Of a stretch of DNA of 64,000 nucleotides, positions 37,069-64,000 are shown one piece after another. The stretch is from assembly GCA_964276515.1 (NCBI GenBank), contig OZ193909.1, positions 17,112,001-17,176,000 on the forward strand, given 5' to 3'. The position numbers and the translations under genes were made by a program. The notes below the pieces were generated by a model that saw nothing but the letters and a program-made list of their open reading frames with translations, searched no databases and was not told where the DNA came from. The stretch comes from Gordius albopunctatus (Eukaryota). Every line of letters begins with the position of its first letter. Position 1 is the stretch's first letter.

Positions 37069-38018
37069 CAGAACTTAGCGATTCAGGGGATTATCCAAAA
37101 ACTGTCTAACACTAAAAGCTTTTCCCGCAACCTATGATAAATAGACGACGGTTAATTAGTGGGCTCCGCAAACGATATAAGCCAAATACTGCCGATTATG
37201 GATCTTTTTCATATCCGATAGGCCTCGACTCAACCACCTGAAATGTGAAATTTACAGCAGGAATACCTCAATAGATCTCTCAACATTCCCCTTTCCCATC
37301 CTCACTCTTAACCAGTTCAGCCACCTAGGCGCAACGCTGGGTGAGCTTATATCTTTACACCAAATATTTAACTTCTATAGAGACCGTCAAACCTACCCCG
37401 CAGGAACATACCCTTCAATAATTAGAATTTGATTAAGGTCAATGGCATTTTGTCGCCAATAGAATGCCTCGACACTCTATCATCTGTCATGTTCATATAA
37501 AAGGCATTACCTGATAAAATTCCACATTTTACATAATAGCCTATCTACTGAAACCGCCTGCATGAATAAGGGAAGTTTTACAAAGCTAAATAGGCTAAAT
37601 ACTTTAGGAACTTGTATGTCGTGTCAGAATATCAATAAATGGATTGGCAAAAATCACATTTTTGTTATATTTTCATTTAATAGATCTGTTAATGCTACTT
37701 TAAATAAGTAGCGCGCTACAATATTTTAATACATTTATAAAATCAAAGCAAAAATTATTTATTATATTAAAAAATTCATTTTAGAGTGGTTCACGGTGAA
37801 CACAAATGTATTTTTAATTTTTCACTCTTAACTTTAAAATTAATTATGCTAGAATAAAAAATTATGTAATGGATTCCTTTCCCCTTTATTTGTAAATTAA
37901 ATTTATCAAATTAAAATCTTATCCATTAATTTGTAAATAATTGTCGTTTTGAAAACGCCAAAATAGCTGTTTTTTCAAAAATTTACCCACTTAACGCCTC
38001 CCACTATTCGCCAAAAAA

Positions 38019-41689: not shown

Positions 41690-42690
41690 TTAAATATCAA
41701 AATTTATTCCAATATGAAAGGTTATTAAATATAAAAAATTATCCTAATATCAAAGGCTATTAAATATCAAAAATTATCCCAATATCAAAGGTTATTTCTA
41801 CTATTTGGTAATTTCTCAAATACATTATCTAAGATATGTTTGTAACTCTGTATCACTTATTATAACAACAACTTGAATAAAATTATTTGCCAAAATGTGT
41901 ATTGTATTATGATTATATAAGTATTTAAGTTTAAGATTTGTACTTACCAAAAGTTAATGTCCTGTTTATATAGATTTTCAGGGTTAGATACTTTTATTTT
42001 TAAATTTGCCCAAATGTATATATTATTTATAGAATTATATAAGTATTTAAGTTTAATATTTGTAATATTTACCAAAATTTTGTCATGTTTATTAATATTT
42101 TTAGGGTTAGAAACTGTTATTTTTAAGTTTGACAAAATGTATATAATATTTATAGGATTATATAGGTGTTTAAGTTTAAGATTTGTAATACTTATCATAA
42201 TGTTAAACAATTTTTGCTGCACTTTAAAACTCTAATTCTTTAAATATCAAAAGATTTGTAATACTTATCATAATTTTAAACAATTTTTGCTTCACTTTAA
42301 AACTATAATTCTTTAAATATCAAAAATTATCCCAATATCAAAGAGAATTTCTACTATTTGGTAATTTTCAAATACATTATTCTAAGATATGTTTGTAACT
42401 CTGTATCACTTATTATAACAACAACTTGAATAAAATTATTTGCCAAAATGTGTATTGTATTATGATTATATAAGTATTTAAGTTTAAGATTTGTACTTAC
42501 CAAAAGTTAATGTCATGTTTTTATAGATTTTCAGAGTTAGATACTGTTATTTTTAAATTTGCCCAAATGTATATAATATTTATAGGATTATATAAGTATT
42601 TAGGTTTAAGATTTGTAATACTTACCAAAATGTTATTGTCATGTTAATATAGATTTTTAGGGTTATAAACTGTTACTTTTTAAATTATAT
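41690..42690. repeat. AT-rich complex tandem repeat: ~120-bp units within a ~550-bp duplication
   Basis: 41760-42050 recurs at 42315-42610; repeated TATAAGTATTTAAGTTTAAGATTTGTA motif. Confidence 0.8.
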
Positions 42691-42989: not shown

Positions 42990-44397
42990 TTATACTTCTT
43001 TTTTAGGATACGCGGTGTGTATTAGACCTGACGGGTTGGCCGCTTTGTGGGATTTGATAGCTCTGTCAATTTCAGATAAATAGGGTGGGTCCGTATCGAT
43101 GTGGAGGGGTGGTGGGCCTTTGAAGTTAAAGATAAATCCTCTGTATATATCCACTACAGGGAATAAGGGCTGGGCGATAAAATTGAACGAAAATGGTCTT
43201 CCCAAGCTTTGGTTTGGGCGAAGGAGTCGTTGGAGCCGCCAACTGTGTTTATGCTGTTGTAGGCTCGTTTGGAGAATGTGTTATAGTTAAGGCTGTCTAG
43301 AATGGTAAATAGCTGGTGATTGTTATTGGAACGTGCTGCCGCTTCGGCCTCTGTGGTTTTTGCGCTTGCTGAGAGCGGATAAGCATGCGTTTTTGAAAGG
43401 AAACTCATTTCTATCAAAGTAGATGTTAGATTTTGTCTTGAGGAGCTCAATTGTTTTTTCTGAAAACCATGTCTTTGTTATAATTCGACACTGGTCCTTC
43501 AAGGGAATTGTAAATATTTCTGATATTTTTATGCTGTGGTCGTTTTTCGACAGGTCGGAAAGATTGTTATTTTGGATTTTTAGGTGAAGGTGGTCCATAA
43601 ATTCAGTGGTTGTGGACAGACCTTGCGTGTCGAAGGAACCCATAGGGTGGCTGCTTTCAACACTAGTTCAGCGGCTATTGCACAATGGTCAGCGTCATCG
43701 GTGAGGGGGTCCACAATTACATGAATGTTTTTGAGAATTTTTAGATGCCTTGACCTACAGATCAGATGGTCTATTTGGCTTGATTGCAAGTTGTTTTTTT
43801 CCGGAAGGTGGCCAGCCGATTATAGGGAAGATCTGAGAATGTTGAAGTAATTCGCCAATTTCCCATGTTGCACCATTTTTTTAGAATATTACCGTTTTTG
43901 TTGTTGGAGCCTAAGGTTTTAGGGCCTATTAAATTATGGTTGTCACGGTCAGTGCGCTCGACGGATGAATTCAAGTCGCCAATTATAATTGGCTCCGACT
44001 TGCGGCTTAATTTTTTGATTTTGTCAGAGAGAAGACTGAACAATTCGTTAATAACCTTAGTTTTGTAGGAGGATGTAGGGGCATAAACGTTTATCACCGA
44101 CACCACACGTACCCCTATTGTTAGATTGATTATAAGAATCCTTTCATTTACCCAGTCGGTACTCAGAACGGGAAGACGTTTATTTATGAAAGTTGAAACC
44201 CCTGTTTCTGGATTATCTGTAAAACCCACGTGGTAAAGGGTGTACTCTGAGCTGCTGTCGATTCTAGAATGAGGAATCCGCGTCTGCTGTAGACATAGGA
44301 TGTCGAGTTTATGGTTTCTTGCATATGTTAACATCATCTGTTGTTTGCCTTGGATCATAAGGGAATTTATATTTATAGAAGCTATTTTGATCTTCAT
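42990..44397 (-). mobile_element. 3'-truncated RTE-like LINE (endonuclease and linker), related to 38019-41160
   Basis: MKIKIASININSL, CLQQTR, NVYAPT, GDLNS, SQIDH, ADH motifs; frameshifts; ends before the RT core. Confidence 0.88.
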
Positions 44398-44650
44398 TAG
44401 CGGTTAAGTTAGTGTGGACGAGGTAGGGGAAGAAATTATGGTCGGGTGACTTGAACTCTCTTAAATTTATATATTTTGAGGTGTCGAGTTGCAGACTACA
44501 AGCCCTAACCCAATAGTATGATGAAGTATTAATTAAACGGTTTCAACTTAGATTGCACTAACTAAGCTCTTGGGCGTCTTCGCGGCAAACTTACCTACTT
44601 ACTTACTCGGGTTAGGACGTGTGAGAGTCTACATCTTTAGAAATGTTTAT

Positions 44651-44850
44651 NNNNNNNNNNNNNNNNNNNNNNNNNNNNNNNNNNNNNNNNNNNNNNNNNN
44701 NNNNNNNNNNNNNNNNNNNNNNNNNNNNNNNNNNNNNNNNNNNNNNNNNNNNNNNNNNNNNNNNNNNNNNNNNNNNNNNNNNNNNNNNNNNNNNNNNNNN
44801 NNNNNNNNNNNNNNNNNNNNNNNNNNNNNNNNNNNNNNNNNNNNNNNNNN
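44651..44850. other. Assembly gap (200 N)
   Basis: Run of N. Confidence 1.
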
Positions 44851-45582: not shown

Positions 45583-45914
45583 GGAATAATGATAAAGCGT
45601 AAAAGGAAATGTTCAAAATGCGTGGGAATTATTAATATTCCTTAATATTTTTAAGTTTATATCGGTTTTAGGTTCAAAATTCTGAGTCATTTTTTGAAAC
45701 AAAACATTTCAAGTGTAATTCTTTCTAATTCATCTATGTAGGTAATGTCTCACAAGTCCGAGGACCTCCACCTATAATAACTTCATCTTCATTTGTGAAT
45801 ACAAGCATTAGATGTAAGTTTACAAACAACACATTTCAAGTGTAATTCTTTCTAATTCATCTATGTAGGTAATGTCTCACAAGTCCAAGCCCGAGGACCT
45901 CCACCTATAATATT

Positions 45915-46330
45915 GTAAGTTTAAGAAAAATATATTATAATATGTATAGATTGTGTCTCTAGTCATCCTCAGTTTGCTCATGCCTTGCCTTCCACAATTT
46001 TTACATCTCATAGTTGTAAGTTTAGGAAAAATATATTATAATTTGTATAGATTGTGCCTCTAGTCGTCCTCAGTTTGCTCATGCCTTGCCTTCCACCATT
46101 TTTACATCCCATAGTTGTAAGTTTAAGAAAAATATATTATAATTTGTATAGATTGTGTCTCTAGTCATCCTCAGTTTGCTCATACCTTGCTTTCCACCAT
46201 TTTTACATCCCATAGTTGTAATTTTAAGAAAAATAGATTATAATTTGCATAGATTTTACATCAAGTCCTTGTCAATCTCTCCCAGCTCCTGCTTTACCTT
46301 CTACCATTTCTACATACGATAATTGTAAGT
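45915..46330 (+). repeat. 101-bp tandem repeat, each unit a 35-nt GT-AG intron plus a 66-nt exon-like segment
   Basis: Three close copies and one diverged copy, with TAG acceptors and GTAAGT/GTAATT donors. Confidence 0.8.
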
Positions 46331-46544
46331 TATTTATTTATTAAAGGATTTGCTAGTTGTAATTAAAGTTACAATTTATAAAAAAAACAAGCTTATTGTA
46401 TTAGTTAAATAAAAATTTATAATATATTATAGGCTCAATCAGGGATGCAGAAATTTTGGTTGATGTAGTGGAACGAATACAAAGCAGTCAGCAAAGTAAT
46501 AGTTATATTTTACATAATAAATTTTATTACCTTTTTTAGATATC

Positions 46545-48012
46545 ATGCGCTTTATTCCATCTGGCAAAGGTTACCTTCTTTACTTTGGTGGTTATCTGTA
46601 TTACAAAATAAGAAGAGCCCCGTCTACTACCTACTATCGGTGTAGGACGAGGAGTTGCCCTGGCAAGGCAAAAATTACAACCTCCCCCGAAGTTACTTAC
46701 GGGCATAACCATGAGCAATCTAGGGAGGAATATGAGTTTTTAATTACTGTCAGGGATTTGAAGGAGGCAGTTTTGGCAGAACCCAGGGAGAAACTGAGGA
46801 CGCTATACCATAAGATCATTGCTAGACGGTTACGCGAAGTACCTGACCTGGTATTGTATCCAAAGGCGACCCCTACATTCAAATCAATAAGGCAAACGCT
46901 CCAAAGAGTAAATCCTAAGAGAGTGAAGGACCTGGACAACAATAGGGAGATTATCTTAGATCCGGAGCATCGCTTCACCGAAAACGGTGAGAGATTCTTG
47001 CTCTGGAACTGGGATAATCGACTTATGCTTTTCGGGACACCCACGTCTCTAAAGATTATGTGTACATCCGGTAATCTTTACTCGGATGGCACATATTATG
47101 TATGCCCGCCATCGTTTAGCCAAGTAATAGCAGTTTTTAATATTAAATTTTAATTTATAGGTCTATACAATCCACACTTTTTACCGGGGACACATGATTC
47201 CCGTCGTGTATGCCCTGTTACTCGAAAAATCCTGCGAAACCTATAAAATGGTTTTGAACAAATTAAAGGAGTTGTGCCTTGAGCATAATTTTGTGTTACA
47301 ACCAAATTATGTTCAGGTTCACTTTGAAATGGCTAGTATACAAGCCCTCCGAGAATGTTTTCCAGGCGTTTTAGTGAAAGGTTTTTAATTTATTAAATAA
47401 CATATATTTAATTTAGGATGTTTATTCCATTTTGTCCAAGCTATTTTTCGAAGACTTGGGCATGAGGGAATACGGTCCGAGTACAATGAAAATCAACATT
47501 TCAAAAAATTGGTACGGCGCGCTTTAGCCCTTCCATTTTTAAAAGAACACGATGTGCTAGATGTTTTTCGATTATGTGCTTCTGACACTCTCGTTCGCTC
47601 TAACGAGAAAAGTGAAGACTTTTTTCAATATATACACCGAACCTGGGTCTGGTCAACCGCCACTTTTCCATATGAGATTTGGCAAAGGTTTAATGCTGGG
47701 GGACCCCGTACAAACAATCATTTGGATGGGTTCCATAACAGAATTAAATGCTTTGTTGGCCGGGCCCACCCCGTTATATATGATTTCATTGAATGCCTAC
47801 GTAAACAACAAACCATTACGGAAATTAATTTATTGCATATTTCTCAAGGTAAGCAGGTGTTTGCTACCAGCAAGGAATATCGCAATATTAACACCAATAT
47901 AAATAGATTGGTAAATCAATATAGCCTTAACGAAATTGATGTATATGAATTTATTGATAATATTTCTGTATATATGTATTTACAATCGCATGAATTAATT
48001 GTTGACACATAA
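46545..48012 (+). mobile_element. FLYWCH-MULE (Mutator-like) transposase gene; introns 47124-47160 and 47381-47416; probably extends upstream through further small exons
   Basis: FLYWCH (GYLY..YYRC...C...HNH), YSDGTY, QVYTIH, PVVYALL, GCLFHFVQA, RTNN motifs. Removing two GT-AG introns gives one continuous frame. Confidence 0.9.
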
Positions 48013-50214
48013 ATAAAATATATTTCTAATTATATATATATTGATATAACACGGCAAGTTATAAGTAGAGCTGTTAATAAAATAGTTATTGGAACTATTT
48101 CATTTTTTAAATTTAACAGCTTTCATTTCAGTTTAACTTTAAAAGCGCTCCCCTATGTGACTAATTTTGCTCATGACAAAAATAACTTTAATTTTATGAT
48201 TGATATAATAAGAACATATTAAATAAGGTAGGAACTATAAATTTAGAAAATTTGGCTGGAAAAAAACTTAAAAACCAAAAAATAGAGTCGTCAAACTTAA
48301 GGAAGTGTAAGCTAGAATATTATCATTTGTAATCTAAATTATTAAAGTTTAATTCCATCCAATAAAAGCCTATGCTAGATATAAATAGATTAAATGAATA
48401 CTGAGATTCTTAATACATTAGATGATTGCATGGGAAAAAAGAAAAATTGATTGATTTATTAGAATAAAGGATGTAAGACGAGAAGTTGCGGGTATATAAT
48501 TTCGATATATAAATATATGGAGTGGACGATGGCCGTGGAGAAATTTCCGTGAGATCCATCTGTTAGAATTAGTGACATCTACGAGTAATTGGAGGTGTTG
48601 GGCAAGGGGGACCGTTTGATTCTTCGTTCATGCCACCGCTGGACCAACGTGATCTAAAGATGGAAATAAAATATCCCTCCCGCCCCACACGACTAACGAG
48701 TAGAAAACAAACAAATAACTGCTTCCGCAGAACTAAATAACAAATTAAAATAACTGATTATATCATGGCAAAATGCCCGCTATTTAAACCCCGTCGATGC
48801 CCTCCTCATTTGAACGCGGCCTGCACATCTCCACTAACTTGAGGCCTGCCATTTGCATATATTCGTTTACCGAATATTTTACTCGCACACCCATTACTTT
48901 AAGCCTTATTTCTCTCACTTATTTGCATATGCGTAAAGACATCTACAACACCTTCCCCTTTTACCTTTTCCGCCACCTTTTCTTTATGGCCCAGGGAAAG
49001 TTGTTGCAGGACCTCCCCACCACCCCTCTATCGGTCTTTATTGTTACGATCTTAGGCATCGTAAATGAAGGTAAGTTTTCCTAAGATCTAATTTTGAAAA
49101 GAATCTAGCACTTTTTAGTTAAAACCTCGATTCTAAGCAGGGGTTATTAAACATCAATTGACCATCTCTAACGTTATTGACCTTCTCAATCAACATAAAC
49201 GGTATTCGACAGGCAGGACAAGCACGAGTAATAGCATCTGAGTGAATCTTTATCGAAAAAGAAACGTTATCATTTAAACGACATAATTATTCCCAAAAAT
49301 TTCCATAAACTCTATCAACGTTAAAATGCCACAGTCTCCCGACGTACTGACCATCACAATCAACCCAATTAGAGGTCGTAGGCTTATTATCGAAAACCCT
49401 TGCCCCTAAACCCGAGGTTGGCTCATTAACTGAGTCCATTGCCTCATTAATAACAACCGAGGATTTATGCATAGATGCTACCTTGAAACCGGGTGTTGCC
49501 TGGCCATCAGCATTATTAATTAAACAATTGATTTTTCTATTATACGTGGAATTTTTACAAATGTCCCAATATTATCTATTTTCTCATCGATAACGAATCA
49601 CTTTAATTCAAAACTTCCTCGCTTGCACATACTCGAACTTTAGTACTCCCTAAATTTTCATATTTGACCCGTCTAATTGTTTTACTAAAACATGACTTTT
49701 ATTAATGTGTTTAAACGGCCATAACTTTAAAAATTACATTTACTTATAAAAGCAATTGAGACCCCAGAATCGACCAAAAAGATTATTGCTTACCTTCAAT
49801 ATTTCAATAGACCACCGAAGTTTCGCCTCTATTAAAAATTATTAAACAATCTACAATTATGCCTGAAGTGCCCCAACTTATTACCATAAAAGCAATGAGG
49901 GACCGAGGCCTTGACCATGATTATTAACAACATGACAAATGTCTTGTCGATTAAAATTACATCAAAAATGAAAATGCCTCTTTTGGCCAAAACATTGCGA
50001 TTAATAACCCAAAATAAGTTAAATTATCGCGTCAATGTTTTATGTAAAATTCAAAATTAATGAAGCAAAATTTTAAGTAAGAATATATTAATAATATGTA
50101 AAATATAGCAGACTAAATGAAATTACAACGTTAAAATCCATAATATAACCAAAAATATTCTAAACGTCCTATTATAAAGTGACATAACAAAAATTAAAAT
50201 AATATTAACGAAGA

Positions 50215-52766
50215 TTTTTCCATCAGAAATAATTAAAGGATAATATTATTGAACCAATAGAGTATTCTGAGTGGGCCACCCCGTTAGTTCCCGTTAAGAA
50301 AGATGACGGTAGTATACGGGTGTGTGCTGACTATAGAATTACTATTAATAAACATGTGATTGATGTTAAATACCCCCTACCCAGAATAGAGATGGTTTTA
50401 GCTAATTTAAAAAGTTCTAAATTCTTTTCGAAGATAGACCTTAGGAATGCATACCTTCAGTTACGTGTAGATGATAAGACGTCTAAAATTTTAACAATAA
50501 ACACCGATAGAGGTTTGTTTGCTTTTAAACGATTACCGTTCGGTTTAAGTGTGTCGACGCCAATTTTTCAACGAGCAATGGCTTCTATTTTTAATAATTT
50601 AGATGGCATATTTTTCTATTTAGATGATATTTTGGTTACGGGTTCAACGCAAGCCGAGCATGACTCACGACTAATAAATGTTTTATCCTTAATTTAAAGT
50701 AAGAATTTACGTGTATCAGCGTATAAATGCATTTTTTGCACAACTGAAATAACTTATTTGGGTCATATAATAGCCGATGGCTGGGTAAAACCTAATTTAA
50801 TTAAAATTAAGGCTATAAAAAATATGCAGAGGCCTAATAATAAAAAGGAGCTATCCTCATTTTTAGGGCTTATGAATTATTATAGCAGATTTATTGATAA
50901 TTACACGAAGTTTTCGGGTCCGATAATGTTTTGTTTAAATGGGAAGATAAAGAAGATCAATGTTTTAATTATTTAAAAGATATTTTGTTAAAAGACTCTA
51001 TCTTAAAATGCTTTGATCCGGTTAAAGAGCACATCTTAAATGTTGATGCATCCAACACGGGTATAGGAGGAGCTTTATGTCAGGTCGAGGGCGGAGTTGA
51101 GTATCCTGTAATTTACTTTTCGCGTAAACTTAATGGGGCGGAACGCAATTACTCCGTGATTGAAAAAGAAGCGCTTGCTATAACTTTTGGTTTAAAACGA
51201 TGTAGGGAGTATTTAATTGGCAAGACCTTTACAGTTTTTACCGATCACAAGCCTTTAATCAATTTATCTCAAAAAATTAATACGGAATACTTAATGTCCC
51301 CGCGTTTGCAGAGGTGGTTAATAATGCTGGGTAATTTTTCTTTAACATTAAAATATCGTCAGGGAAAAAATAATTGTTTAGCAGACGTTTTGTCGCGTAT
51401 GAGTGATAATAACGATAACGCTGACGACGATATTGGGACCACGCAAACTAGTCACCATTACATTAATGTTTTAAAGATTGTTGAGTTCAACACCATTGTT
51501 AAGAGCTCTAAGACCGACCCCGATTTTATTAAAATGAAAGATATTTTATTGGGTAATGAGGATTTATTTGGAGGATAACGTAGTTAAACGAAATGAAAAA
51601 ATTGTCATACCTACCGAGCTACGTGAGGATGTTTTAAAGGTACTTCACGAAGGGCATGCAGGTATTACAAAGATGAAAGACATAGCTAGAAGGTATGTCT
51701 GGTGGCCTAAAATGACGAAAGGTAGTGAAAGACAGGTTCGACAATGTGAATGGTGCAAGGCAAAGACAGCCATGCCTCGCAGAGACAAAGCGTCGAGATG
51801 GACACGTCCTAATGAAGCTTGGGATCGCATACACATTGATTTTTTCGAACTTGATAAAAAACGCTATTTTTTAATGGTAGATGCTTTTTCGGGTTGGACT
51901 GAATTTAGAAAGGTTTTTAATATGTCTACCCTGGTAACAATTAATTTTTTAAAGGATTTAATTAGTTCGTATGGTTTTCCAATGTGCGTAGTAACCGATA
52001 ATGGTAGATCTTTTACTAGCGCCGATTTTAATAAATTTTATGAACAGTGGAAAATAAGAGATGTATTAACACCACCATATCATCCAAGTTCTAATGGACA
52101 AGTTGAGAGATATGTTGGTATAGTTAAAAAATGGATTAGGTTGTCGCAGTCTGGTAAGGACAGTACTTGGCTCTATAGATTATATCACAACATGTCTCCC
52201 AGGTATCCAGGTCGTTTACCAGTAGGCAATGAGTTTCTTAAACGTAAATTAAGATATCCGCCTGATTTTTTATGGGAATCGGATAAGGTTAATAATACTT
52301 TAACAACTACCCCTCGCTTTAAGATAGATTAGCTAGTGTGGTCACGTAACTATGCAGGTGAACCCATGTGGGTTTTGGCGCGGGTTATGGATCATATTGG
52401 TCATAAGATTTATAAAGTAAGACTTTTAGAGAGTCAGATAGAGGAAGTAAGACATTTGGAGCAATTATTGATTGCACGATGTCTAATTAATATTTTTATA
52501 TTTAGATGCGATTACAGTTATCCTGGTGCTCGGTTGAGGTGGTGGTGAGAAGAACTGCAGTCATTCGCCCTCCAGGCCCTATCCACTTGACAGTGATAAT
52601 CGGGGTGGATGGGCTCCCTAGGATAGTGGCGGTGTTCGAACCACCACCGTCGATTATGCCGGGTGTACCTAGTCCGAATGTGGGTCCGTCCATGGGAGAC
52701 CTGTGGGCAGACCCCGTAGGAAGTGTAATGGGTGCCTTCGTTGGCACGTGATGCCTATGTGTCCAG
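50215..52766 (+). mobile_element. Degenerate Ty3/Gypsy pol (RT, RNase H, integrase), 5'-truncated
   Basis: SEWATPLV, CADYR, IDLRNAY, LPFG, YLDD, VDAS, EKEALA, TDHKPL, ADVLSR, LHEGHAG, HIDF, VTDNG, SNGQVER; domain order RT-RH-IN; stops and frameshifts. Confidence 0.95.
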
Positions 52767-53273
52767 TAGAGTTGTTAAATTGCTAACTTTAGCAATGCTA
52801 ACTATGTGCTATGCTCGAGCACGAACAGTAGCTGGGTAATATGCTAGTTTAGCACAATGAGTGCTAACTGTTCGGTGCGTTCGTTTTAACAGTAGCACAT
52901 AAAAAATGCTCGAGAAGTTAGTCGAAGCAGCCAAATCTGTTAAAAAATTTAGCAGGAGCTCGAGCAGATAGTAGATTGAATTGCTTTTGTTAAACTTTTT
53001 TAGTTACTAACAAAATTTGCTCATGGTATATTATAAAGTTGTTATATTATAGTTTTATAAGAAATTAAGCATGTTGAGCATAAAATGATGGATTACACGA
53101 TAATAAGATGAGATTGTATATTTGATTTTTTACCCTACATGTAATTATATACACTTTGAGTTTTTAGGTATAAATATTTTGTACAGGTGGTTAAATTAAT
53201 ATATAGATGGGGTAAATGTCATAATCTATATTTATGATGCGATTTAAATTTATTTTTCAAATTGTGACTCACT

Positions 53274-56200
53274 CCTTTATCGTGTTGAAAATCCCACAGA
53301 CGTGGGGTACGTTTTCAGCAGCCTCTTCCATCTGAGTCGTGTGAATGCCATCCCAATTTCCATCTGTTTGACGTCCATATCCTTTTCGACCAGTCGTTTC
53401 CAGGTGGCACGTGGTCTGCCCCTTCCTCTTCTTCCAGGCACGTCCATCTCCAGCGTTCGGCGTGTGAAATCGTCTTCGTCTCTTCGTAATACATGGCCGT
53501 ACCACCGCAGTCGATTTTCTCTTAAGAAGTCCTTCGTCGCTTGTATACCCATCTTTGTCATCAAGGATTCGTTCGTCATGCGATCCAGCTTGGTGTAGCC
53601 TAAGCTCCATCGCACCATTCTCATTTCCGTGACTTGCAAGAGTTTCTCCTCCGCGCTGGTTACAGCCCATGTTTCGCTCCCGTAAAGCAAGACCGGTCGC
53701 ACGATGGTTTTGTACGCCTTGCTTTTCAACCAAATTGGTATCTTTTTGTCACACATGACACCGGAGATGCTGCGCCACTTGAGCCATACTTTCTTGATCC
53801 GAGAATGGACTTCGGCGGTACATCCTCCCTCTTGATGTAATAGCGAGCCAAGATATGTGAACTTATCAACCTCCGTGTACCTTGGACCTTCAATTTTGTG
53901 CATTTGCGGACTACCGCCCATCGTTTGCATGTAAACCGTTTTCTTCTCGCTGACCTTTAACCCGAATTCCGAGAAACGTTCTGACCATTTTTTCGCCTGA
54001 TGAAAAACCCCTTCTCTTGTTTCATCGCATAGGACAATATCGTCGGCATATAGCATAGTCCAAGGGGCTGGCTTGTGCAAGTCCTTTGTTATTGTATCCA
54101 TAATTAGATTAAACAAGAATGGGCTTAACGCTGATCCTTGATGTAGTCCGATCATTATTCGGAAGGGTTTCGTTACTCCTACTGTAGTCCTAACAGATGC
54201 AACCGCTCCATTATACATTTCCTTGATAAGTCGAACATATCCTTCGGGTATATTTCTGGCTCTAAGGGACCACCATATTAAGTCTCTCGGAACCGTATCG
54301 TAGGCCTTTTCTAAATCGATGAAGACCATGTGTAATTTCTTTCTTATGACGCCATATTTTTTCATCGTCTGCTTCAACGCAAAGATTGGGTCCATCGTTG
54401 ATTTACCGGCCACAAATCCAAACTGATTGGGCGAGAGACAAACTTCGTCATTGAGCCTTTTCACTAGCACCCTTTCTAGTAGTTTTAGTGAGTGGCAGGT
54501 CAACTTGATACCTCTAAAGTTGCCACATTCCTGCGCGTCTCCTTTACCTTTGTATATGGGTATGATCGTACTTTCCCTCCATTGGTCAGGGATACGACTC
54601 TCATACAGCATAGCGTTAAATAGGCCTGTCATTATGTCGATTCCTTCTCCTTTGCACCCAAGCCAAGCTTCGATCGGTAGATCATCGGGACCTAGCGCTT
54701 TCCCTTTCCGCATCTTCGTTAGTTGTGCTCCTATTTCATAAGCCTGAAATGGTAAAACCAAGTTCGAGTTCGGTTCCACCCTCTCTAGCGGTCTTCTATC
54801 ATTTGTTTTGTTCATCATATTTTGGAAATAATCTTTCCATCTTTTGATGACTTCCTTCGGTTTGCACAACGTTCGTCCCTCTTCGCTTTTAATGACTTTA
54901 AGTGTCCCGACATCTCGACTTTTTTTCTCCCTGATCTTTGCGAGTTTATACATGACTATGTCGCCGCCCTTGGTATCGAGCTTGTTTGCCATCTCGGTGT
55001 AAGCGTTGTTCTTCGCTATCGCGACCGCTATCTTAGCTTTGCGTTTCGCTTCACGATATGCCTCGTAGTCTTCTCCTTTCTTCGTTTTGTACCATCGTAG
55101 GTACAACGCCTTCTTTTCTTCTATAACCTCTTTGACCGAGTCATTCCACCACCATAGTTCACGCTTGTGAGCTCTGCCGCCCTTAGTTCGTCCCAATATT
55201 TGTAAGGCCGTTTCCTTTAGAACATTTGCAACGGTGCCCCACCTTTTGTTAATGTCGCCCTCCAAGCCTGCAACCTTCAAGAGCGGAGTTGCTCGAGTCT
55301 GAAACATTTCATTTGCATGATCATCCTTAAGCTTTTCGTACTTTGTCCTTGGTGTGTAGACTTTTCTCCTTACGGGAAAAATCTTTCTTGCTATATCGAG
55401 GACAACTGGCCGATGTTGTTTGGCGATTTCTTCCCCCGGTATAACCTTGCAATCTTTAACTTGCCACAAATTTATGCGCTTCACTAATATGTAGTCGACC
55501 TGTGTAAGGTGATTTCCACTACTGTACGTCGCTAAATGTTCGGTACGCTTCTGAAAGAAGGTATTCACAATGGCCATATCGTAAGCTTGCGCCATCTGTA
55601 GTAACTTCTCTCCCTCTTTATTTTTCACTCCATAGCCATGCCCGCCGTAATTTCGTTCGTACACGCCCCTTTCTTTCCCAACGTGCCCATTAAAGTCTGC
55701 TCCGATGATGAGATTCTCGTCAGGCTTCACGTAGCGTATTTCTTCTTTGAGCTTCTCATAGAATTCGTCCTTCTCGTTTTCGGAACATCCAACCTGGGGC
55801 GAATACGCACAAATAACATTGACAAGGCCGCCTTGATCCGCCAGCTTTATGCACATCAATCTATCCGAGCATCGTTTGACTTCGACTACCTTGTCCTTAA
55901 AGGAATCGCTAAGCACTATACCGACCCCGTTCTTCCGTGATGGGGAACCCGAGTAGTATAGCTTGTAACCATCTCCTAGCTCCCTGGCTTTTGTTCCATG
56001 CCACCGTGTTTCTTGTAGACACGCTATGTGTATCCTTCGTCTTTTTAGCATCTGCGCAACCTCGATGCTCTTCCCCGTCAGCGTGCCAACATTCCAGCTA
56101 GCCACTCTTGTCCGTTCGACAACTAGGTTCCTTAACCGCCTTTGTTGTGAGTGAGGCGGTGACCCTTGTATACTTTTCACATTGCACGGGTGGATGATGC

Positions 56201-56356
56201 AATGCGCGTCGTTTGGGGAGGACGCCCTAGCATTCTGGTATAAGTTCGTATTTGAAGCTGCCATGGTGTTTGGAGTTGCTTTTTACAGCCGGCTTCCGAC
56301 CTGACGCCAACCCTCCACTTTTTTCACACGGACTTGGGACCGTCGTTGGTAGTGTT
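53274..56356 (-). mobile_element. Full-length RTE LINE (3083 bp), left copy
   Basis: 15-bp TSD AAATTGTGACTCACT (53259-53273, 56357-56371); single intact ORF. Confidence 0.97.
53277..56264 (-). CDS. RTE ORF: APE endonuclease + reverse transcriptase (995 aa)
   Basis: WNVGTL, CLQETR, GADFNGHVG, QVDYIL, QHR; FIDLEKAYD, GLHQGSALSP, YADD, LLYGSETW. Confidence 0.97.
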   Translation of the reverse strand: MAASNTNLYQNARASSPNDAHCIIHPCNVKSIQGSPPHSQQRRLRNLVVERTRVASWNVGTLTGKSIEVAQMLKRRRIHIACLQETRWHGTKARELGDGYKLYYSGSPSRKNGVGIVLSDSFKDKVVEVKRCSDRLMCIKLADQGGLVNVICAYSPQVGCSENEKDEFYEKLKEEIRYVKPDENLIIGADFNGHVGKERGVYERNYGGHGYGVKNKEGEKLLQMAQAYDMAIVNTFFQKRTEHLATYSSGNHLTQVDYILVKRINLWQVKDCKVIPGEEIAKQHRPVVLDIARKIFPVRRKVYTPRTKYEKLKDDHANEMFQTRATPLLKVAGLEGDINKRWGTVANVLKETALQILGRTKGGRAHKRELWWWNDSVKEVIEEKKALYLRWYKTKKGEDYEAYREAKRKAKIAVAIAKNNAYTEMANKLDTKGGDIVMYKLAKIREKKSRDVGTLKVIKSEEGRTLCKPKEVIKRWKDYFQNMMNKTNDRRPLERVEPNSNLVLPFQAYEIGAQLTKMRKGKALGPDDLPIEAWLGCKGEGIDIMTGLFNAMLYESRIPDQWRESTIIPIYKGKGDAQECGNFRGIKLTCHSLKLLERVLVKRLNDEVCLSPNQFGFVAGKSTMDPIFALKQTMKKYGVIRKKLHMVFIDLEKAYDTVPRDLIWWSLRARNIPEGYVRLIKEMYNGAVASVRTTVGVTKPFRIMIGLHQGSALSPFLFNLIMDTITKDLHKPAPWTMLYADDIVLCDETREGVFHQAKKWSERFSEFGLKVSEKKTVYMQTMGGSPQMHKIEGPRYTEVDKFTYLGSLLHQEGGCTAEVHSRIKKVWLKWRSISGVMCDKKIPIWLKSKAYKTIVRPVLLYGSETWAVTSAEEKLLQVTEMRMVRWSLGYTKLDRMTNESLMTKMGIQATKDFLRENRLRWYGHVLRRDEDDFTRRTLEMDVPGRRGRGRPRATWKRLVEKDMDVKQMEIGMAFTRLRWKRLLKTYPTSVGFSTR

Positions 56357-56362
56357 AAATTG
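56306..56362 (-). ncRNA. Twister ribozyme at the RTE 5' end (left copy)
   Basis: Reverse complement of 59627-59683. Confidence 0.85.
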
Positions 56363-57890
56363 TGACTCACTAAGAGTCTAAAAAATGTTTTTTTACCTTT
56401 GGAATTAAGATTTTTAAAAGTTTAGCAGTCGCCCTGGTGACAAATGTCATAATCCATATTTATGATGCGATTTAAATTTTTTTTTAAATTCTGACTCACT
56501 AAGAGCTTAAAAAATGTTTTTCACCTTTGAAATTAAGATTTTTAAAAGTTTATCGGTCGCCCAGGTGACAAATGTCATAATCCATATTTATGATGCGATT
56601 TAAAATTTTTTTTAAATTCTGACTCACTAAGAGCTTAAAAAATGCTTTTCACCTTTGAAATTAAGATTTTTAAAAGTTTAGCGGTCACCCAGGTGACAAA
56701 TATCATAATCCATATTTATGATGCGATTTAAATTTTTTTTGAAATTCTGAACAACTAAGAGCTTAAAAAATGTTTTCACTATTGAAATTAAGATTTTTAA
56801 AAGTTTAGCGGTCGCCCAGGTGACAAATATATTAATCTATTTATTATCCGATTTAAATTTTTTTTTTAAATTCTGACTCATTAAGAGCTTAAAAAATGCT
56901 TTTCACTTTTGAAATTAAGATTTTTAAAAGTTTAGCGGTCGCCCAGGTGAAAAATGTCATAATCCATATTTATGATGCGATTTAAAATTTTTTTTTAAAT
57001 TCTGACTCACTAAGAGCTTAAAAAATGCTTTTCACCTTTGAAATTAAGATTTTTAAAATTTTAGCGGTCACCCAGGTGACAAATGTCATAATCCATATTT
57101 ATGATGCGATTTAAATTTTTTTTTTTAATTCTGACTCACCAAGAGCTTAAAAAATGCTTTTCACCTTTGAAATTAAGATTTTTAAAAGTTTAGCGGTCAC
57201 CCAGGTGACAAATCTCATAATCCATATTTATGATGCGATTTAAAATTTTTTTTAAATTCTGACTCACTAAGAGCTTAAAAAATGCTTTTCACCTTTGAAA
57301 TTAAGATTTTTAAAATTTTAGCAGTCCAACAGGTGACAAATATATTAATCTATTTATGATCCGATTTAAATTTTTTTTTTAAATTCCGACTCATTAAGAG
57401 CTCAAAAAATGCTTTTCACCTTTGAAATTAAGATTTTTAAAAGTTTAGCGGTCGCCCAGGTGACAAATGTCATAATCCATATTTATGATGCGATTTAAAT
57501 TTTTTTTTAAATTCTGACTCACTAAGAGCTTAAAAAATGCTTTTCACCTTTGAAATTAAGATTTTTAAAAGTTTAGCGGTCGCCCAGGTGACTAATGTCA
57601 TAATCCATATTTATGATGCGATTTAAATTTTTTTTTAAATTCTGACTCACTAAGAGCTTAAAAAATGCTTTTCACCTTTGAAATTAAGATTTTTAAAAGT
57701 TTAGCGGTCGCCCAGGTGACAAATGTCATAATCCATATTTATGATGCGATTTAAATTTTTTTTTAAATTTTGACTCACTAAGAGCTTAAAAAATGCTTTT
57801 CACCTTTGAAATTAAGATTTTTAAAATTTTAGCGGTCCAACAGGTGACAAATATATTAATCTATTTATGATCCGATTTAAAATTTTTTAA
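56357..57890. repeat. ~122-bp tandem repeat array (about 12-13 units) inside the hAT left arm
   Basis: Unit GTGACAAATGTCATAATCCATATTTATGATGCGATTTAAA...CTGACTCACTAAGAGCTTAAAAAATGCTTTTCACCTTTGAAATTAAGATTTTTAAAAGTTTAGCGGTCGCCCAG. Confidence 0.95.
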
Positions 57891-58031
57891 TTTTAACTTA
57901 TAGATGGCTAAAATAATACTAAAAATCGTCGTGGATATAATATTTACAAATTTTATTAAGTCTAATAATAAGTTTATGAAATCAATGATAAACATATAAT
58001 AGATGAAATTATAACATATTTAGGCTGTAAA

Positions 58032-58991
58032 ACATCCCTCTGGATGTTTCCACACGTTGGAATAGCACCTACAATATGCTATCCATTATAAATAAAGTAA
58101 TATAAAATATTTTGAAATTTATAAACAAATTAGAATATTATGACAATAAATTCTACTGATCCCTCCAAGGGAATTACATTATCCAATGAAGAAAAGGATA
58201 TTATGAACCAAATAGAAAATTTTTTATCTCCCTTTTATATCGTAACCAATTTAATTAGTTATGACTCAAAGGCCACCGTGGGTATGGCCTTAATTTATTT
58301 AAAAGACCTTAGCGCAAAAATGGAAGAAACGCTAAGGTCTAATGAAGCGCTATTTCATGATGCTTGTGAAGTCATGAGGGTAAAATTTGTGAAATACATA
58401 CCAGAATATGAGCGCTTTAATTTTTATGTAGCGGGATACCTCGATCCAAGAATTAAAAGAAGGTATTTACCTTCAACGATAAATACTACGGGTACCTCTA
58501 TTTTAATCATTTAATAATTTTTAATATTTTATTAGAAAATTATGAAAAGCTGGTGAATTTACATAATATTTATAAATCAAATGAAAGATTTCGTTTCCAT
58601 GATGGGATTACTCGTAAAGAAGACGATTACACCTCAGCCATTTTGAATCGTTTAAGGAGGTAAATAAATTTTTATACAATATTTTAATGACTCATTTAGT
58701 CCAACAGAGTCCTGTGTTGATTATGCTGGCGAAATGAGTGAATATGAAAATGATATTCCTCTAGCAGCGAATACAGTATTAGAATGGTGGAGGATAAATG
58801 AATCACGGTTCCCGGCATTGGGAAAAATGGCCAGAGATTTTTTGGCACAGTCCACCACCTCCGTTCCAAGTGAACGGATGTTTTCCATCGCCGGAAATAT
58901 TTTAACTGCGAGGCGTAATAGGTTATCACCTACTACAATTCGCGATATGATGTGCCTGAAATCATGGCGAAATATAAATTTTACAGCCTAA
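58032..58991 (+). pseudogene. 5'-truncated, intron-containing hAT (Ac/ZBED-like) transposase
   Basis: LDVSTRWNSTYNML, FLSPFY, YLDPRIK, LEWWRINESRFPALGKMARDFLA, TSVPSERMFS, RRNRLSP; short AT-rich introns near 58097, 58492 and 58660. Confidence 0.92.
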
Positions 58992-59124
58992 ATATGTTAT
59001 GATTTCATCTATTATATGTTTATCATTGATTTCACAAACTTATTATTAGACTTAATAAAATTTGTAAATATTATATCCATGACGATTTTTAGTATTGTTT
59101 TAGCCATCTATAAGTTTATATTAA

Positions 59125-59632
59125 AGAATTTTAAATCGCATCATAAATATGGATTATGACATTTGTCACCTGGGCGACCGCTAAACTTTTAAAAATCTTA
59201 ATTTCAAAGGTGAAAACATTTTTTAAGCTCTTAGTTGTTCAGAATTTCAAAAAAAATTTAAATCGCATCATAAATATGGATTATGATATTTGTCACCTGG
59301 GTGACCGCTAAACTTTTAAAAATCTTAATTTCAAAGGTGAAAAGCATTTTTTAAGCTCTTAGTGAGTCAGAATTTAAAAAAAATTTTAAATCGCATCATA
59401 AATATGGATTATGACATTTGTCACCTGGGCGACCGATAAACTTTTAAAAATCTTAATTTCAAAGGTGAAAAACATTTTTTAAGCTCTTAGTGAGTCAGAA
59501 TTTAAAAAAAAATTTAAATCGCATCATAAATATGGATTATGACATTTGTCACCAGGGCGACTGCTAAACTTTTAAAAATCTTAATTCCAAAGGTAAAAAA
59601 ACATTTTTTAGACTCTTAGTGAGTCACAATTT
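59125..59632. repeat. ~122-bp tandem repeat array (about 4 units), inverted relative to 56357-57890
   Basis: Reverse complement of the same unit, sharing diagnostic variants with the first four left-arm units. Confidence 0.95.
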
Positions 59633-59683
59633 AACACTACCAACGACGGTCCCAAGTCCGTGTGAAAAAAGTGGAGGGTTGGC
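59627..59683 (+). ncRNA. Twister ribozyme at the RTE 5' end (right copy)
   Basis: U^AACACUAC-CAACG-ACGG-UCCCAAGU-CCGU-GUGAAAAA-AGUG-GAGGG parallels the rice twister as I recall it (UAACACUGCCAAUGCCGGUCCCAAGCCCGGAUAAAAGUGGAGGG), with compensatory changes. Confidence 0.87.
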
Positions 59684-62600
59684 GTCAGGTCGGAAGCCGG
59701 CTGTAAAAAGCAACTCCAAACACCATGGCAGCTTCAAATACGAACTTATACCAGAATGCTAGGGCGTCCTCCCCAAACGACGCGCATTGCATCATCCACC
59801 CGTGCAATGTGAAAAGTATACAAGGGTCACCGCCTCACTCACAACAAAGGCGGTTAAGGAACCTAGTTGTCGAACGGACAAGAGTGGCTAGCTGGAATGT
59901 TGGCACGCTGACGGGGAAGAGCATCGAGGTTGCGCAGATGCTAAAAAGACGAAGGATACACATAGCGTGTCTACAAGAAACACGGTGGCATGGAACAAAA
60001 GCCAGGGAGCTAGGAGATGGTTACAAGCTATACTACTCGGGTTCCCCATCACGGAAGAACGGGGTCGGTATAGTGCTTAGCGATTCCTTTAAGGACAAGG
60101 TAGTCGAAGTCAAACGATGCTCGGATAGATTGATGTGCATAAAGCTGGCGGATCAAGGCGGCCTTGTCAATGTTATTTGTGCGTATTCGCCCCAGGTTGG
60201 ATGTTCCGAAAACGAGAAGGACGAATTCTATGAGAAGCTCAAAGAAGAAATACGCTACGTGAAGCCTGACGAGAATCTCATCATCGGAGCAGACTTTAAT
60301 GGGCACGTTGGGAAAGAAAGGGGCGTGTACGAACGAAATTACGGCGGGCATGGCTATGGAGTGAAAAATAAAGAGGGAGAGAAGTTACTACAGATGGCGC
60401 AAGCTTACGATATGGCCATTGTGAATACCTTCTTTCAGAAGCGTACCGAACATTTAGCGACGTACAGTAGTGGAAATCACCTTACACAGGTCGACTACAT
60501 ATTAGTGAAGCGCATAAATTTGTGGCAAGTTAAAGATTGCAAGGTTATACCGGGGGAAGAAATCGCCAAACAACATCGGCCAGTTGTCCTCGATATAGCA
60601 AGAAAGATTTTTCCCGTAAGGAGAAAAGTCTACACACCAAGGACAAAGTACGAAAAGCTTAAGGATGATCATGCAAATGAAATGTTTCAGACTCGAGCAA
60701 CTCCGCTCTTGAAGGTTGCAGGCTTGGAGGGCGACATTAACAAAAGGTGGGGCACCGTTGCAAATGTTCTAAAGGAAACGGCCTTACAAATATTGGGACG
60801 AACTAAGGGCGGCAGAGCTCACAAGCGTGAACTATGGTGGTGGAATGACTCGGTCAAAGAGGTTATAGAAGAAAAGAAGGCGTTGTACCTACGATGGTAC
60901 AAAACGAAGAAAGGAGAAGACTACGAGGCATATCGTGAAGCGAAACGCAAAGCTAAGATAGCGGTCGCGATAGCGAAGAACAACGCTTACACCGAGATGG
61001 CAAACAAGCTCGATACCAAGGGCGGCGACATAGTCATGTATAAACTCGCAAAGATCAGGGAGAAAAAAAGTCGAGATGTCGGGACACTTAAAGTCATTAA
61101 AAGCGAAGAGGGACGAACGTTGTGCAAACCGAAGGAAGTCATCAAAAGATGGAAAGATTATTTCCAAAATATGATGAACAAAACAAATGATAGAAGACCG
61201 CTAGAGAGGGTGGAACCGAACTCGAACTTGGTTTTACCATTTCAGGCTTATGAAATAGGAGCACAACTAACGAAGATGCGGAAAGGGAAAGCGCTAGGTC
61301 CCGATGATCTACCGATCGAAGCTTGGCTTGGGTGCAAAGGAGAAGGAATCGACATAATGACAGGCCTATTTAACGCTATGCTGTATGAGAGTCGTATCCC
61401 TGACCAATGGAGGGAAAGTACGATCATACCCATATACAAAGGTAAAGGAGACGCGCAGGAATGTGGCAACTTTAGAGGTATCAAGTTGACCTGCCACTCA
61501 CTAAAACTACTAGAAAGGGTGCTAGTGAAAAGGCTCAATGACGAAGTTTGTCTCTCGCCCAATCAGTTTGGATTTGTGGCCGGTAAATCAACGATGGACC
61601 CAATCTTTGCGTTGAAGCAGACGATGAAAAAATATGGCGTCATAAGAAAGAAATTACACATGGTCTTCATCGATTTAGAAAAGGCCTACGATACGGTTCC
61701 GAGAGACTTAATATGGTGGTCCCTTAGAGCCAGAAATATACCCGAAGGATATGTTCGACTTATCAAGGAAATGTATAATGGAGCGGTTGCATCTGTTAGG
61801 ACTACAGTAGGAGTAACGAAACCCTTCCGAATAATGATCGGACTACATCAAGGATCAGCGTTAAGCCCATTCTTGTTTAATCTAATTATGGATACAATAA
61901 CAAAGGACTTGCACAAGCCAGCCCCTTGGACTATGCTATATGCCGACGATATTGTCCTATGCGATGAAACAAGAGAAGGGGTTTTTCATCAGGCGAAAAA
62001 ATGGTCAGAACGTTTCTCGGAATTCGGGTTAAAGGTCAGCGAGAAGAAAACGGTTTACATGCAAACGATGGGCGGTAGTCCGCAAATGCACAAAATTGAA
62101 GGTCCAAGGTACACGGAGGTTGATAAGTTCACATATCTTGGCTCGCTATTACATCAAGAGGGAGGATGTACCGCCGAAGTCCATTCTCGGATCAAGAAAG
62201 CATGGCTCAAGTGGCGCAGCATCTCCGGTGTCATGTGTGACAAAAAGATACCAATTTGGTTGAAAAGCAAGGCGTACAAAACCATCGTGCGACCGGTCTT
62301 GCTTTACGGGAGCGAAACATGGGCTGTAACCAGCGCGGAGGAGAAACTCTTGCAAGTCACGGAAATGAGAATGGTGCGATGGAGCTTAGGCTACACCAAG
62401 CTGGATCGCATGACGAACGAATCCTTGATGACAAAGATGGGTATACAAGCGACGAAGGACTTCTTAAGAGAAAATCGACTGCGGTGGTACGGCCATGTAT
62501 TACGAAGAGACGAAGACGATGTCACACGCCGAACGCTGGAGATGGACGTGCCTGGAAGAAGAGGAAGGGGCAGACCACGTGCCACCTGGAAACGACTGGT

Positions 62601-62715
62601 CGAAAAGGATATGGACGTCAAACAGATGGAAATTGGGATGGCATTCACACGACTCAGATGGAAGAGGCTGCTGAAAACGTACCCCACGTCTGTGGGATTT
62701 TCAACACGATAAAGG
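59633..62715 (+). mobile_element. Full-length RTE LINE (3083 bp), right copy
   Basis: 15-bp TSD AGTGAGTCACAATTT (59618-59632, 62716-62730); single intact ORF. Confidence 0.97.
59725..62712 (+). CDS. RTE ORF: APE endonuclease + reverse transcriptase (995 aa)
   Basis: Same motifs as the left copy; differs at 2 residues (KKAW vs KKVW, DDVT vs DDFT). Confidence 0.97.
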   Translation: MAASNTNLYQNARASSPNDAHCIIHPCNVKSIQGSPPHSQQRRLRNLVVERTRVASWNVGTLTGKSIEVAQMLKRRRIHIACLQETRWHGTKARELGDGYKLYYSGSPSRKNGVGIVLSDSFKDKVVEVKRCSDRLMCIKLADQGGLVNVICAYSPQVGCSENEKDEFYEKLKEEIRYVKPDENLIIGADFNGHVGKERGVYERNYGGHGYGVKNKEGEKLLQMAQAYDMAIVNTFFQKRTEHLATYSSGNHLTQVDYILVKRINLWQVKDCKVIPGEEIAKQHRPVVLDIARKIFPVRRKVYTPRTKYEKLKDDHANEMFQTRATPLLKVAGLEGDINKRWGTVANVLKETALQILGRTKGGRAHKRELWWWNDSVKEVIEEKKALYLRWYKTKKGEDYEAYREAKRKAKIAVAIAKNNAYTEMANKLDTKGGDIVMYKLAKIREKKSRDVGTLKVIKSEEGRTLCKPKEVIKRWKDYFQNMMNKTNDRRPLERVEPNSNLVLPFQAYEIGAQLTKMRKGKALGPDDLPIEAWLGCKGEGIDIMTGLFNAMLYESRIPDQWRESTIIPIYKGKGDAQECGNFRGIKLTCHSLKLLERVLVKRLNDEVCLSPNQFGFVAGKSTMDPIFALKQTMKKYGVIRKKLHMVFIDLEKAYDTVPRDLIWWSLRARNIPEGYVRLIKEMYNGAVASVRTTVGVTKPFRIMIGLHQGSALSPFLFNLIMDTITKDLHKPAPWTMLYADDIVLCDETREGVFHQAKKWSERFSEFGLKVSEKKTVYMQTMGGSPQMHKIEGPRYTEVDKFTYLGSLLHQEGGCTAEVHSRIKKAWLKWRSISGVMCDKKIPIWLKSKAYKTIVRPVLLYGSETWAVTSAEEKLLQVTEMRMVRWSLGYTKLDRMTNESLMTKMGIQATKDFLRENRLRWYGHVLRRDEDDVTRRTLEMDVPGRRGRGRPRATWKRLVEKDMDVKQMEIGMAFTRLRWKRLLKTYPTSVGFSTR

Positions 62716-63220
62716 AGTGAGTCACAATTTGAAAAATAAATTTAAATCGCATCATAAATATAGATTATGACATTTACCCCATCTATATATTAATTTAACC
62801 ACCTGTACAAAATATTTATACCTAAAAACTCAAAGTGTATATAATTACATGTAGGGTAAAAAATCAAATATACAATCTCATCTTATTATCGTGTAATCCA
62901 TCATTTTATGCTCAACATGCTTAATTTCTTATAAAACTATAATATAACAACTTTATAATATACCATGAGCAAATTTTGTTAGTAACTAAAAAAGTTTAAC
63001 AAAAGCAATTCAATCTACTATCTGCTCGAGCTCCTGCTAAATTTTTTAACAGATTTGGCTGCTTCGACTAACTTCTCGAGCATTTTTTATGTGCTACTGT
63101 TAAAACTAACGCACCGAACAGTTAGCACTCATTGTGCTAAACTAGCATATTACCCAGCTACTGTTCGTGCTCGCGTTTTTAGTTGAAGCTGCTTAGCAAT
63201 TTAACAACTATAGTGTCCAG

Positions 63221-63702
63221 GTAGGAGCACAGGCACGGCACAAGTAGGTGACGTGCCTCAGGCTACTCCTGAGGTAACGCCGAGAGCGTGGGAGGCGTCG
63301 CTGAGTGCGGAGGAGGCACTACGACATCTGTCCCTGGGCCATAATTAGGAGGTGCCGGAGAAGGTAAAAGAGGAAGGTCTTGTGGTTGCTAGTTTTTTAG
63401 GCCTATTCGAATGAGCTTAGTTATTGTTGTAGCCGTGGTTAAGTAGTTAAATCACTTAACATTCACGCGCCTATGCTAATGAGATAGCGTTTTGTATCTT
63501 GCCCACTAATGGGGAGAATAATTAGCGTGTGAATAAATGGTAATGTAGGTTGGTTATGTGAATAGACGTGCAGTAGTTAGAAGCAGACGTCGAACGGTCG
63601 GCAGCTCTCATTCAAATTGAGAGCCGCATCGACTGTGATAAAAGGCTGGATTGTACACTGTTTTTTAATCATATATTGTTTTCTTCTCTCTGTGTAGTAA
63701 CA
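63221..63702 (+). mobile_element. 3' remainder of the Gypsy element: GC-rich tail, putative PPT (63366-63377) and putative 3' LTR (63381-63702)
   Basis: Composition continues that of 52510-52766 across the hAT TSD; purine tract AAAAGAGGAAGG followed by TGTGG...TAACA. No second LTR in the window to confirm. Confidence 0.5.
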
Positions 63703-64000
63703 GCGATTATCAACCGAGAAAAAGAAGTCCCTTGATCCAATACCCCCACCGACTCGTATACGTCACCATTTCTAGTCGATTAAGTTCACGGATAATTACT
63801 CACGGCCTTCGTCCAACTTATATTTCATTATTACCTGTTCAATATTTTGTTTATCGGGATTATAACACACATTCGTCCAATATTGTTGATACTATTACTG
63901 GCACTAATAAAAGATTGTTGCAGAGGTTATTTCATTATTGTTTGCCAAGAGCGTTAACAATACGTTGATATTTATTACTAGGTTTTTCCATAGAGTGTTA

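Follow-up and report, generated by a model that had tools for sequence, protein, structure and literature searches.

Structure of the element and its arms

The window analyzed in this study is a 64,000-nucleotide stretch of the Gordius albopunctatus genome (assembly GCA_964276515.1, contig OZ193909.1, positions 17,112,001 to 17,176,000 of the forward strand), with a GC content of 34.6%. At positions 52767–63212, it contains one non-autonomous derivative of a hAT DNA transposon, 10,446 bp in length, which has an RTE-type long interspersed nuclear element (LINE) in each of its two arms. On both sides the element is flanked by one perfect 8-bp target-site duplication (TSD), GTGTCCAG, at 52759–52766 and 63213–63220 (plus strand); with the local base composition, the chance of this 8-mer match is ∼1e-5. 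The terminal inverted repeats (TIRs) of the element are 20 bp in length and match at 19 of 20 positions, position 3 being the sole mismatch.

Self-comparison of the window gave a single dominant inverted match, between 52816–56864 and 63173–59123. In the base-level alignment, the outer mirrored tract runs from 52816 to 56779 in the left arm and from 63173 to 59210 in the right arm. It is 3,964 bp in length and contains no indels and three substitutions (52882, 53468 and 53788); one is in the 443-bp subterminal region, two are in the LINE and its TSDs, and none is in the 408 bp of repeat array. The flanks outside the element are not mirrored. The element has the architecture of a foldback: a short middle between long inverted arms that contain tandem repeats.

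The left subterminal region (52816–53258, plus strand) closes in one partial 128-bp repeat unit; its mirror in the right arm is located at 62731–63173 (minus strand). The two LINE copies follow, at 53274–56356 on the minus strand and at 59633–62715 on the plus strand. Both are 3,083 bp in size, contain one 995-residue open reading frame (ORF; 53277–56264 and 59725–62712, respectively), and are flanked by an identical 15-bp TSD. The outer copies of this TSD are at 53259–53273 (plus strand) and 62716–62730 (minus strand), the inner copies at 56357–56371 and 59618–59632.

Inside the LINE, each arm contains an array of 128-bp units. The left array (56357–57897, plus strand) has 12 units with a four-unit period, forming three blocks of four, whereas the right array (59114–59632, minus strand, inner TSD included) has four. 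Units of the left array differ from one another by 5.9% on average. Counted from the LINE inward, units R1–R3 of the right array are identical to L1–L3 of the left, and R4 is like L4 over its first ∼23 bp only; the inner edge of the mirrored tract, at 56779/56780 within unit 4, is sharp. In both arms, the LINE is inserted within the first 128-bp unit.

For comparison with other samples, 22 public runs, all in the form of contigs, were listed, and five of them (X1–X4 and X6) were compared: X1–X4 over positions 59505–64000 (32 of 50,836 pieces listed) and X1, X2, X3 and X6 over the transposase core (28 of 697 pieces listed). Contig depth was not taken as copy number. The comparison left aside thirteen listed rows with small shares (0.08–0.18), which came under several organism codes and one freshwater metagenome; neither horizontal transfer nor habitat can be read from them.

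The unmirrored core (58033–58978, plus strand) is 946 bp in size. It encodes the 3′ part of a hAT transposase, beginning immediately ahead of the TRWNS motif and reaching to the dimerisation domain. It matched PF05699 with an E-value of 3.9e-20, above the cut-off, PF14372 with an E-value of 1.5e-5, below the cut-off, and Hermes with an E-value of 1e-13. The C-terminal dimerisation domain, the RW motif (TRWNS) and the region of the last catalytic Glu, all characteristic of hAT transposases, are present; the complete transposase of an autonomous hAT, with BED finger and DDE triad, is not, the core beginning just before TRWNS. In all four runs compared (X1, X2, X3 and X6), contigs extend upstream of 58031 with other sequence, and in X2, X3 and X6 the upstream consensus shares the reading frame of the TRWNS exon. 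Since other copies thus continue upstream of the point where the core starts, we regard the element as non-autonomous. A search with the dimerisation piece found no full-length transposase relative; a 126-residue piece of the core gave 16 weak, unnamed hits, the best with an E-value of 8e-10. At 2941–3318 (minus strand) lies a further hAT dimerisation-domain remnant (E-value 2e-11), which does not match the core at the DNA level.

The core is bordered by an older inner mirror. The native region 3′ of the transposase (58979–59113, plus strand), in which the stop codon is located at 58991, was the template for 57898–58032 (minus strand), where the stop region and 3′ flank are repeated in inverted orientation; one X3 contig bridges the native region to the core (58713–59027). 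The 5′ part of the transposase gene was replaced in the window copy by this inverted copy of its own 3′ region. The junction between inner mirror and core has 2 bp in common with both partners. With four differences in 135 bp, the inner mirror is more diverged than the outer tract with three in 3,964 bp (Fisher p 4e-5). This significant difference indicated that the arms predate the event that homogenised the outer 3.9 kb.

Between each TIR and the mirrored tract lie ∼30 bp that are completely different at the two ends. The left TIR (52767–52786, plus strand) is followed by a type A tip (52787–52815, plus strand); this left-type tip recurs in the window at 14321, and the left TIR with its first adjoining bases matches the left end of a miniature inverted-repeat transposable element (MITE). 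The type B tip of the right end, together with the right TIR (63174–63212, minus strand), resembles the right end of the same MITE. The consensus start of hAT TIRs is (C/T)A(A/G)NG. The left TIR fits this consensus, and the right TIR deviates at position 3, where it differs both from the left TIR and from the MITE right end, which has the usual base. Aberrant transposition of two like ends was rejected, as the element tips belong to two types. In one X3 contig the left-type tip is attached to the subterminal sequence of the element, and two others lead from the right tip into other flanks; these contigs indicated that long inverted subterminal regions are a trait of the family.

Two relatives of the family were also observed in the window. 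The MITE (30745–30932) is 188 bp in length, belongs to the same hAT family, contains both tip types and has a TSD matching at 7 of 8 positions. The other consists of a related left-type end (14321–14761, 85% identical) and a fragment of the 128-bp unit without RTE (15539–15649), with ∼780 bp of other sequence between them.

Much of this structure had been proposed by a sequence-only reading of the stretch, and its hAT TIRs and perfect TSD around a 10.4-kb palindrome, as well as its 3083-bp RTE with an open 995-residue ORF and the same 15-bp TSD in each arm, were borne out. Its count of three substitutions between ∼4-kb arms is exact, though the tract starts at 52816 and not at 52813. It had also taken a transposase remnant to be the only unmirrored part: the core is indeed unmirrored, but so are the surplus units of the unequal arrays and the unlike tips.

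The mirrored LINE and its family

The LINE protein is encoded by a single ORF, which contains an APE (PF03372) and a reverse transcriptase (RT; PF00078) domain. A single APE-RT ORF in a TSD-flanked element of ∼3 kb is the architecture of the RTE clade. The 120 protein hits listed are 40–46% identical and none is named RTE; by its architecture, we take the LINE to be a putative member of the clade.

At the 5′ end of the family (59633), varied flanks were observed in 20 contigs of X1 and 19 of X2, with an agreement of ∼0.5. The 3′ end passes after 62714 into an (AAG)n tail in 25, 11 and 10 contigs of X1, X2 and X4, respectively. Short simple-repeat tails of the RTE kind are thus present in the family, and the two copies of the window are almost tail-less. 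Because the 5′ flanks vary and the 3′ ends enter (AAG)n, we conclude that the family is dispersed rather than site-specific and that the window copies are full length. The repeat units also exist without the LINE. In 3, 1 and 34 contigs of X2, X3 and X4, respectively, they run on without RTE after 59632, which represents either the next units or empty sites. RTE-free arms are represented by one X4 contig that skips the RTE and by the copy in the window at 14321/15539.

Compared to the two long contigs of X3, the right RTE copy shows 10 and 7 differences, 17 in 2,608 bp in total (59654–62261). The left copy carries the letter of the right copy at all 17 of these sites, and over the same 2,608 bp the two arms differ at one position (p 1.4e-4). 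In X1, X2 and X4, the other letter accounts for 53–100% of contig depth at all 17 sites, and at six of them for at least 97% in all three runs. Sharing of private variants is not confined to the LINE: in the hAT part of the arms, all eight private sites listed are common to both arms. Taken at face value, the two arms differ ∼10 times less from one another than from the family, which indicated that the insertion is much older than the mirroring, or that the latter is upheld by repeated conversion.

Thirteen of the 17 private RTE variants are GC-to-AT changes. Nine are at CpG (p 3e-5), three of these being C-to-A, and 11 are nonsynonymous (78% is expected for random changes). Judged by this spectrum, the variants look like decay after insertion. 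The CpG excess hints at CpG methylation in the host.

The two ORFs differ from each other at two residues. All eight catalytic positions checked match the homologue columns. However, the copies share 11 amino-acid changes relative to X3, and codons 635 and 639, changed in both arms, are at RT columns that are conserved in 100% and 86% of 77 homologues (those of 900–1060 residues among the 120 listed). The left copy has two more changes, which are found in none of the 77. The homologue set is a distant one, the protein departing from it at 33 of 236 highly conserved columns, so the shared changes would make RTE activity less likely rather than impossible. The suggestion that the element carries two potentially active LINEs is therefore doubtful: the ORFs are open and the catalytic residues intact, but both proteins share changes at conserved RT columns.

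Two older RTE-like copies were observed elsewhere in the window. One (10260–12650, plus strand) shares 70–74% identity with the arm RTE, lacks the part for residues ∼241–464 and is flanked by a separate TSD of ∼19 bp. The other (3963–5516, minus strand) is degraded and lies head to head with the first. We considered whether they form a second mirrored pair and rejected it; they are 75–83% identical, their flanks are unmirrored, and the copy at 10260–12650 has its own TSD.

Origin of the two arms

The feature is very probably real: a foldback derived from a hAT, in which the arms have undergone two extensions, the later one across a whole LINE. To explain its structure, we favor a history in which the LINE inserted once, aged in one arm and was then copied to the other arm in one ∼3.9-kb tract of homologous repair, to which we assign a probability of about three in four. 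One insertion copied from arm to arm had been suggested by the sequence-only reading. It is supported by the complete sharing of private variants in the RTE (17/17) and in the hAT part of the arms (8/8), and by the varied insertion sites of the family.

Three nested levels of difference are preserved in the element: the outer tract (3/3964), the inner mirror (4/135) and the fully different tips. The starting point is a family in which two distinct tips are placed on shared inverted subterminal regions of ∼440 bp and 128-bp repeats, as seen in a few copies. An older template switch, using the 2-bp microhomology, would then have placed the inverted post-stop region on the left, with loss of the 5′ part of the transposase gene. 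Subsequently, the RTE entered the first repeat unit of one arm, as its TSD shows, and may have gathered its private, largely GC-to-AT and CpG changes there by decay. Finally, a break or gap in the other arm would have been repaired with the RTE-bearing arm as template, either within one molecule or from the sister chromatid; the tract would start close to the tip, between 62948 and 63173, and end in repeat unit 4. As L3 has a variant in common with L6 and L7, the direction of copying was weakly suggested to be from left to right.

The break may have come from the inverted repeat itself or from excision. Template switching in repair after excision of Tc1, which Fischer et al. are said to have described in 2003, is another possible trigger. 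Long spaced inverted repeats have been described as sources of breaks (PMC2775673).

Several observations weigh against this history. Among the pieces listed for either stretch, none bridged a locus-specific junction. None of the runs is evidently from the individual of the window; population difference may therefore account for some of the ‘private’ 0.65%, and rare variants are lost in contigs. All three inter-arm differences look derived on the left arm, which is compatible with chance (p 0.25) and would also fit two haplotypes. One N-gap in the window has 99%-identical inverted repeats on both sides, and the assembly does break at such structures. In addition, a single long tract is indistinguishable from repeated conversion.

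The same product could be reached by two crossovers: subterminal recombination would invert the interior of an element with one RTE, and a later crossover in the 128-bp arrays, between the inverted and uninverted alleles, would unite the two RTE arms. This would account for breakpoints in the subterminal region and in unit 4, as well as for the location of all three differences on one arm. Recombination between TIRs with inversion and conversion was reported for a bacterial insertion sequence (PMC3004938), and arm homogenisation with inversion of the spacer for short yeast inverted repeats (PMC8604942). However, two events and a segregating inverted allele are required, and all four private subterminal variants listed (62792–62948) are common to the arms, which confines the first crossover to the outermost ∼230 bp. 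We regard this course of events as unlikely. More improbable still is an assembly artefact: only one arm of the true element would carry the RTE, and the assembler or a gap-filler would have walked this arm a second time, as could happen with one walk per haplotype. The junctions of the locus have no independent support among the contig pieces listed, the 0.08% inter-arm difference would be plausible heterozygosity, and the contig ends at the nearby gap fall in inverted repeats. A chimeric fold-back should nevertheless mirror the flanks and give identical tips, whereas the element here lies between unmirrored flanks and a perfect TSD, and its tips belong to the two distinct types of the family. 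Long reads would easily span the ∼1.1 kb of a right arm without RTE, so two wrong jumps would probably be needed; the shared private variants also indicated that polishing had not drawn the arms towards the family majority. A site-specific RTE that inserted twice independently is nearly excluded. Both copies are full length, so their identical 5′ ends would be unremarkable, but the flanks of the family are varied, of the 16 units counted only the first was hit in each arm, and the parts of the arms outside the RTE were homogenised too (1/851 bp), with their eight listed private variants shared.

The sequence-only reading had further proposed that the composite could move two potentially active LINEs by cut-and-paste. 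This is unsupported, and the composite has probably not transposed since the copying; no second composite copy was seen among the pieces listed for the two stretches, and the changed position 3 of the right TIR also speaks against mobility. Since Tol2 carries 10–11 kb without loss (PMC8151067), the size of the composite alone is no bar to mobility. Judging by the contigs of the core stretch, longer transposase copies occur in related samples. It is conceivable, yet improbable, that the hAT family with its foldback arms is a recurrent copier, in which insertions into one arm, full-length LINEs included, are mirrored and the doubled cargo still transposes as a 10-kb unit. If so, a LINE would be multiplied and spread without reverse transcription, and read-through would yield hairpin RNA of kilobase length that could silence the two families.

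Other features of the window were also recorded. To the left of the element, a gypsy-like reverse transcriptase, RNase H and integrase are located in separate ORFs (50233–52332); the integrase ORF ends ∼430 bp before the transposon. The right flank (63221–63900) has an older inverted relative at 48511–49016 (74–81% identity). Both sides of the 200-N gap (44651–44850) end in 99%-identical inverted repeats, 41099–41207/44543–44650 and 44851–45054/45645–45847, which are either other long-armed elements or assembler fold-backs. At 46521–48012, an ORF encoding a FLYWCH domain precedes another that gave no Pfam hit; together they are likely a Mutator-like transposase in pieces. Positions 1–792 and 13104–13894 are a direct duplication of 86% identity with ORFs; the one at 12769–13335 has no Pfam hit. 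A POP1 C-terminal domain (25725–26465, minus strand; E-value 9e-7) probably belongs to a host gene, and the search gave no relative. Other LINE-like fragments and minisatellites (periods of 123–126 and 101 bp) are located at 37995–40910, 43323–44403, 41690–42686 and 45913–46255.

Comparison with known systems

Extension of TIRs in foldback elements is already known; here it would have run across a whole LINE in a hAT-derived foldback. Among the titles and abstract openings listed in the literature searches, none described a DNA transposon with a retrotransposon mirrored in its two arms. If real, the element is an unusually clean record of TIR extension, with two mirrorings that differ in age, a passenger that is dated and has a TSD to itself, and repeat units by which the edge of the tract can be placed. 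It would also mean that inter-arm repair in a transposon can extend over 3.9 kb or more and carry a 3-kb insertion across. This bears on the growth of long arms in foldback elements and on dating by the identity of arms or copies. Two LINE copies that have open ORFs and are 99.9% identical are here likely no sign of recent retrotransposition; if the arm copying is true, the LINE was doubled without its own copying machinery. The element points, from one locus, to a hAT family with foldback-like arms.

The closest counterpart is Galileo of the P superfamily in Drosophila mojavensis. Its 2RT copies owe added arm length to tandem repeats and also take the F2 region, which follows the transposase, into their TIRs in inverted orientation, and repair of one TIR from the other was proposed (PMC3573991). 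Like the 2RT copies, the window element has long TIRs with internal tandem repeats in unequal number per arm, and in Galileo, too, the longest arms are in non-autonomous copies (PMC3573991). Different from Galileo, however, the window element is a hAT with an 8-bp TSD, and its arms are ∼4 kb in length, compared to at most ∼1.26 kb in Galileo; the extension also spans a whole nested LINE, a case that the Galileo text consulted does not describe, though its supplementary copy table could hold one (PMC3573991). P/THAP or MULE transposases, which define Galileo and Mutator, and the 7-bp TSD of Galileo were not found; the domains are those of hAT and the TSD is 8 bp.

Like FB, Tetris and the Muta1 type-2 foldback, the window element has long modular inverted arms, tandem repeats and a short middle (PMC4079207, PMC5225508). 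Most foldbacks appear to belong to Mutator, with exceptions (PMC4079207). Unlike those described there, the window element has a hAT transposase remnant, short true TIRs and unlike tips. These traits are partly those of Hermes and Tol2, which are described as having an 8-bp TSD, short imperfect TIRs (17 and 19 bp in Tol2), subterminal repeats, an RW motif and a C-terminal dimerisation domain (PMC8151067). Different from Hermes and Tol2, only the 3′ part of the gene is retained in the window, and the subterminal regions are inverted copies of one another over kilobases.

Arm-to-arm gene conversion is established in the large palindromes of sex chromosomes and, like in these palindromes, the inter-arm difference of the window element is far below its difference to outside copies (PMC8327919, 10.1101/800185, PMC7023750). 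Among the palindromes in these reports, the willow palindrome likewise contains one long terminal repeat (LTR) element in two arms, which was ascribed to palindrome formation; its 13 annotated LTR insertions, unlike the LINE of the window, are unmirrored and were judged to be independent. The sex-chromosome palindromes are chromosomal and larger than 10 kb, whereas the mirror of the window sits inside one transposon.

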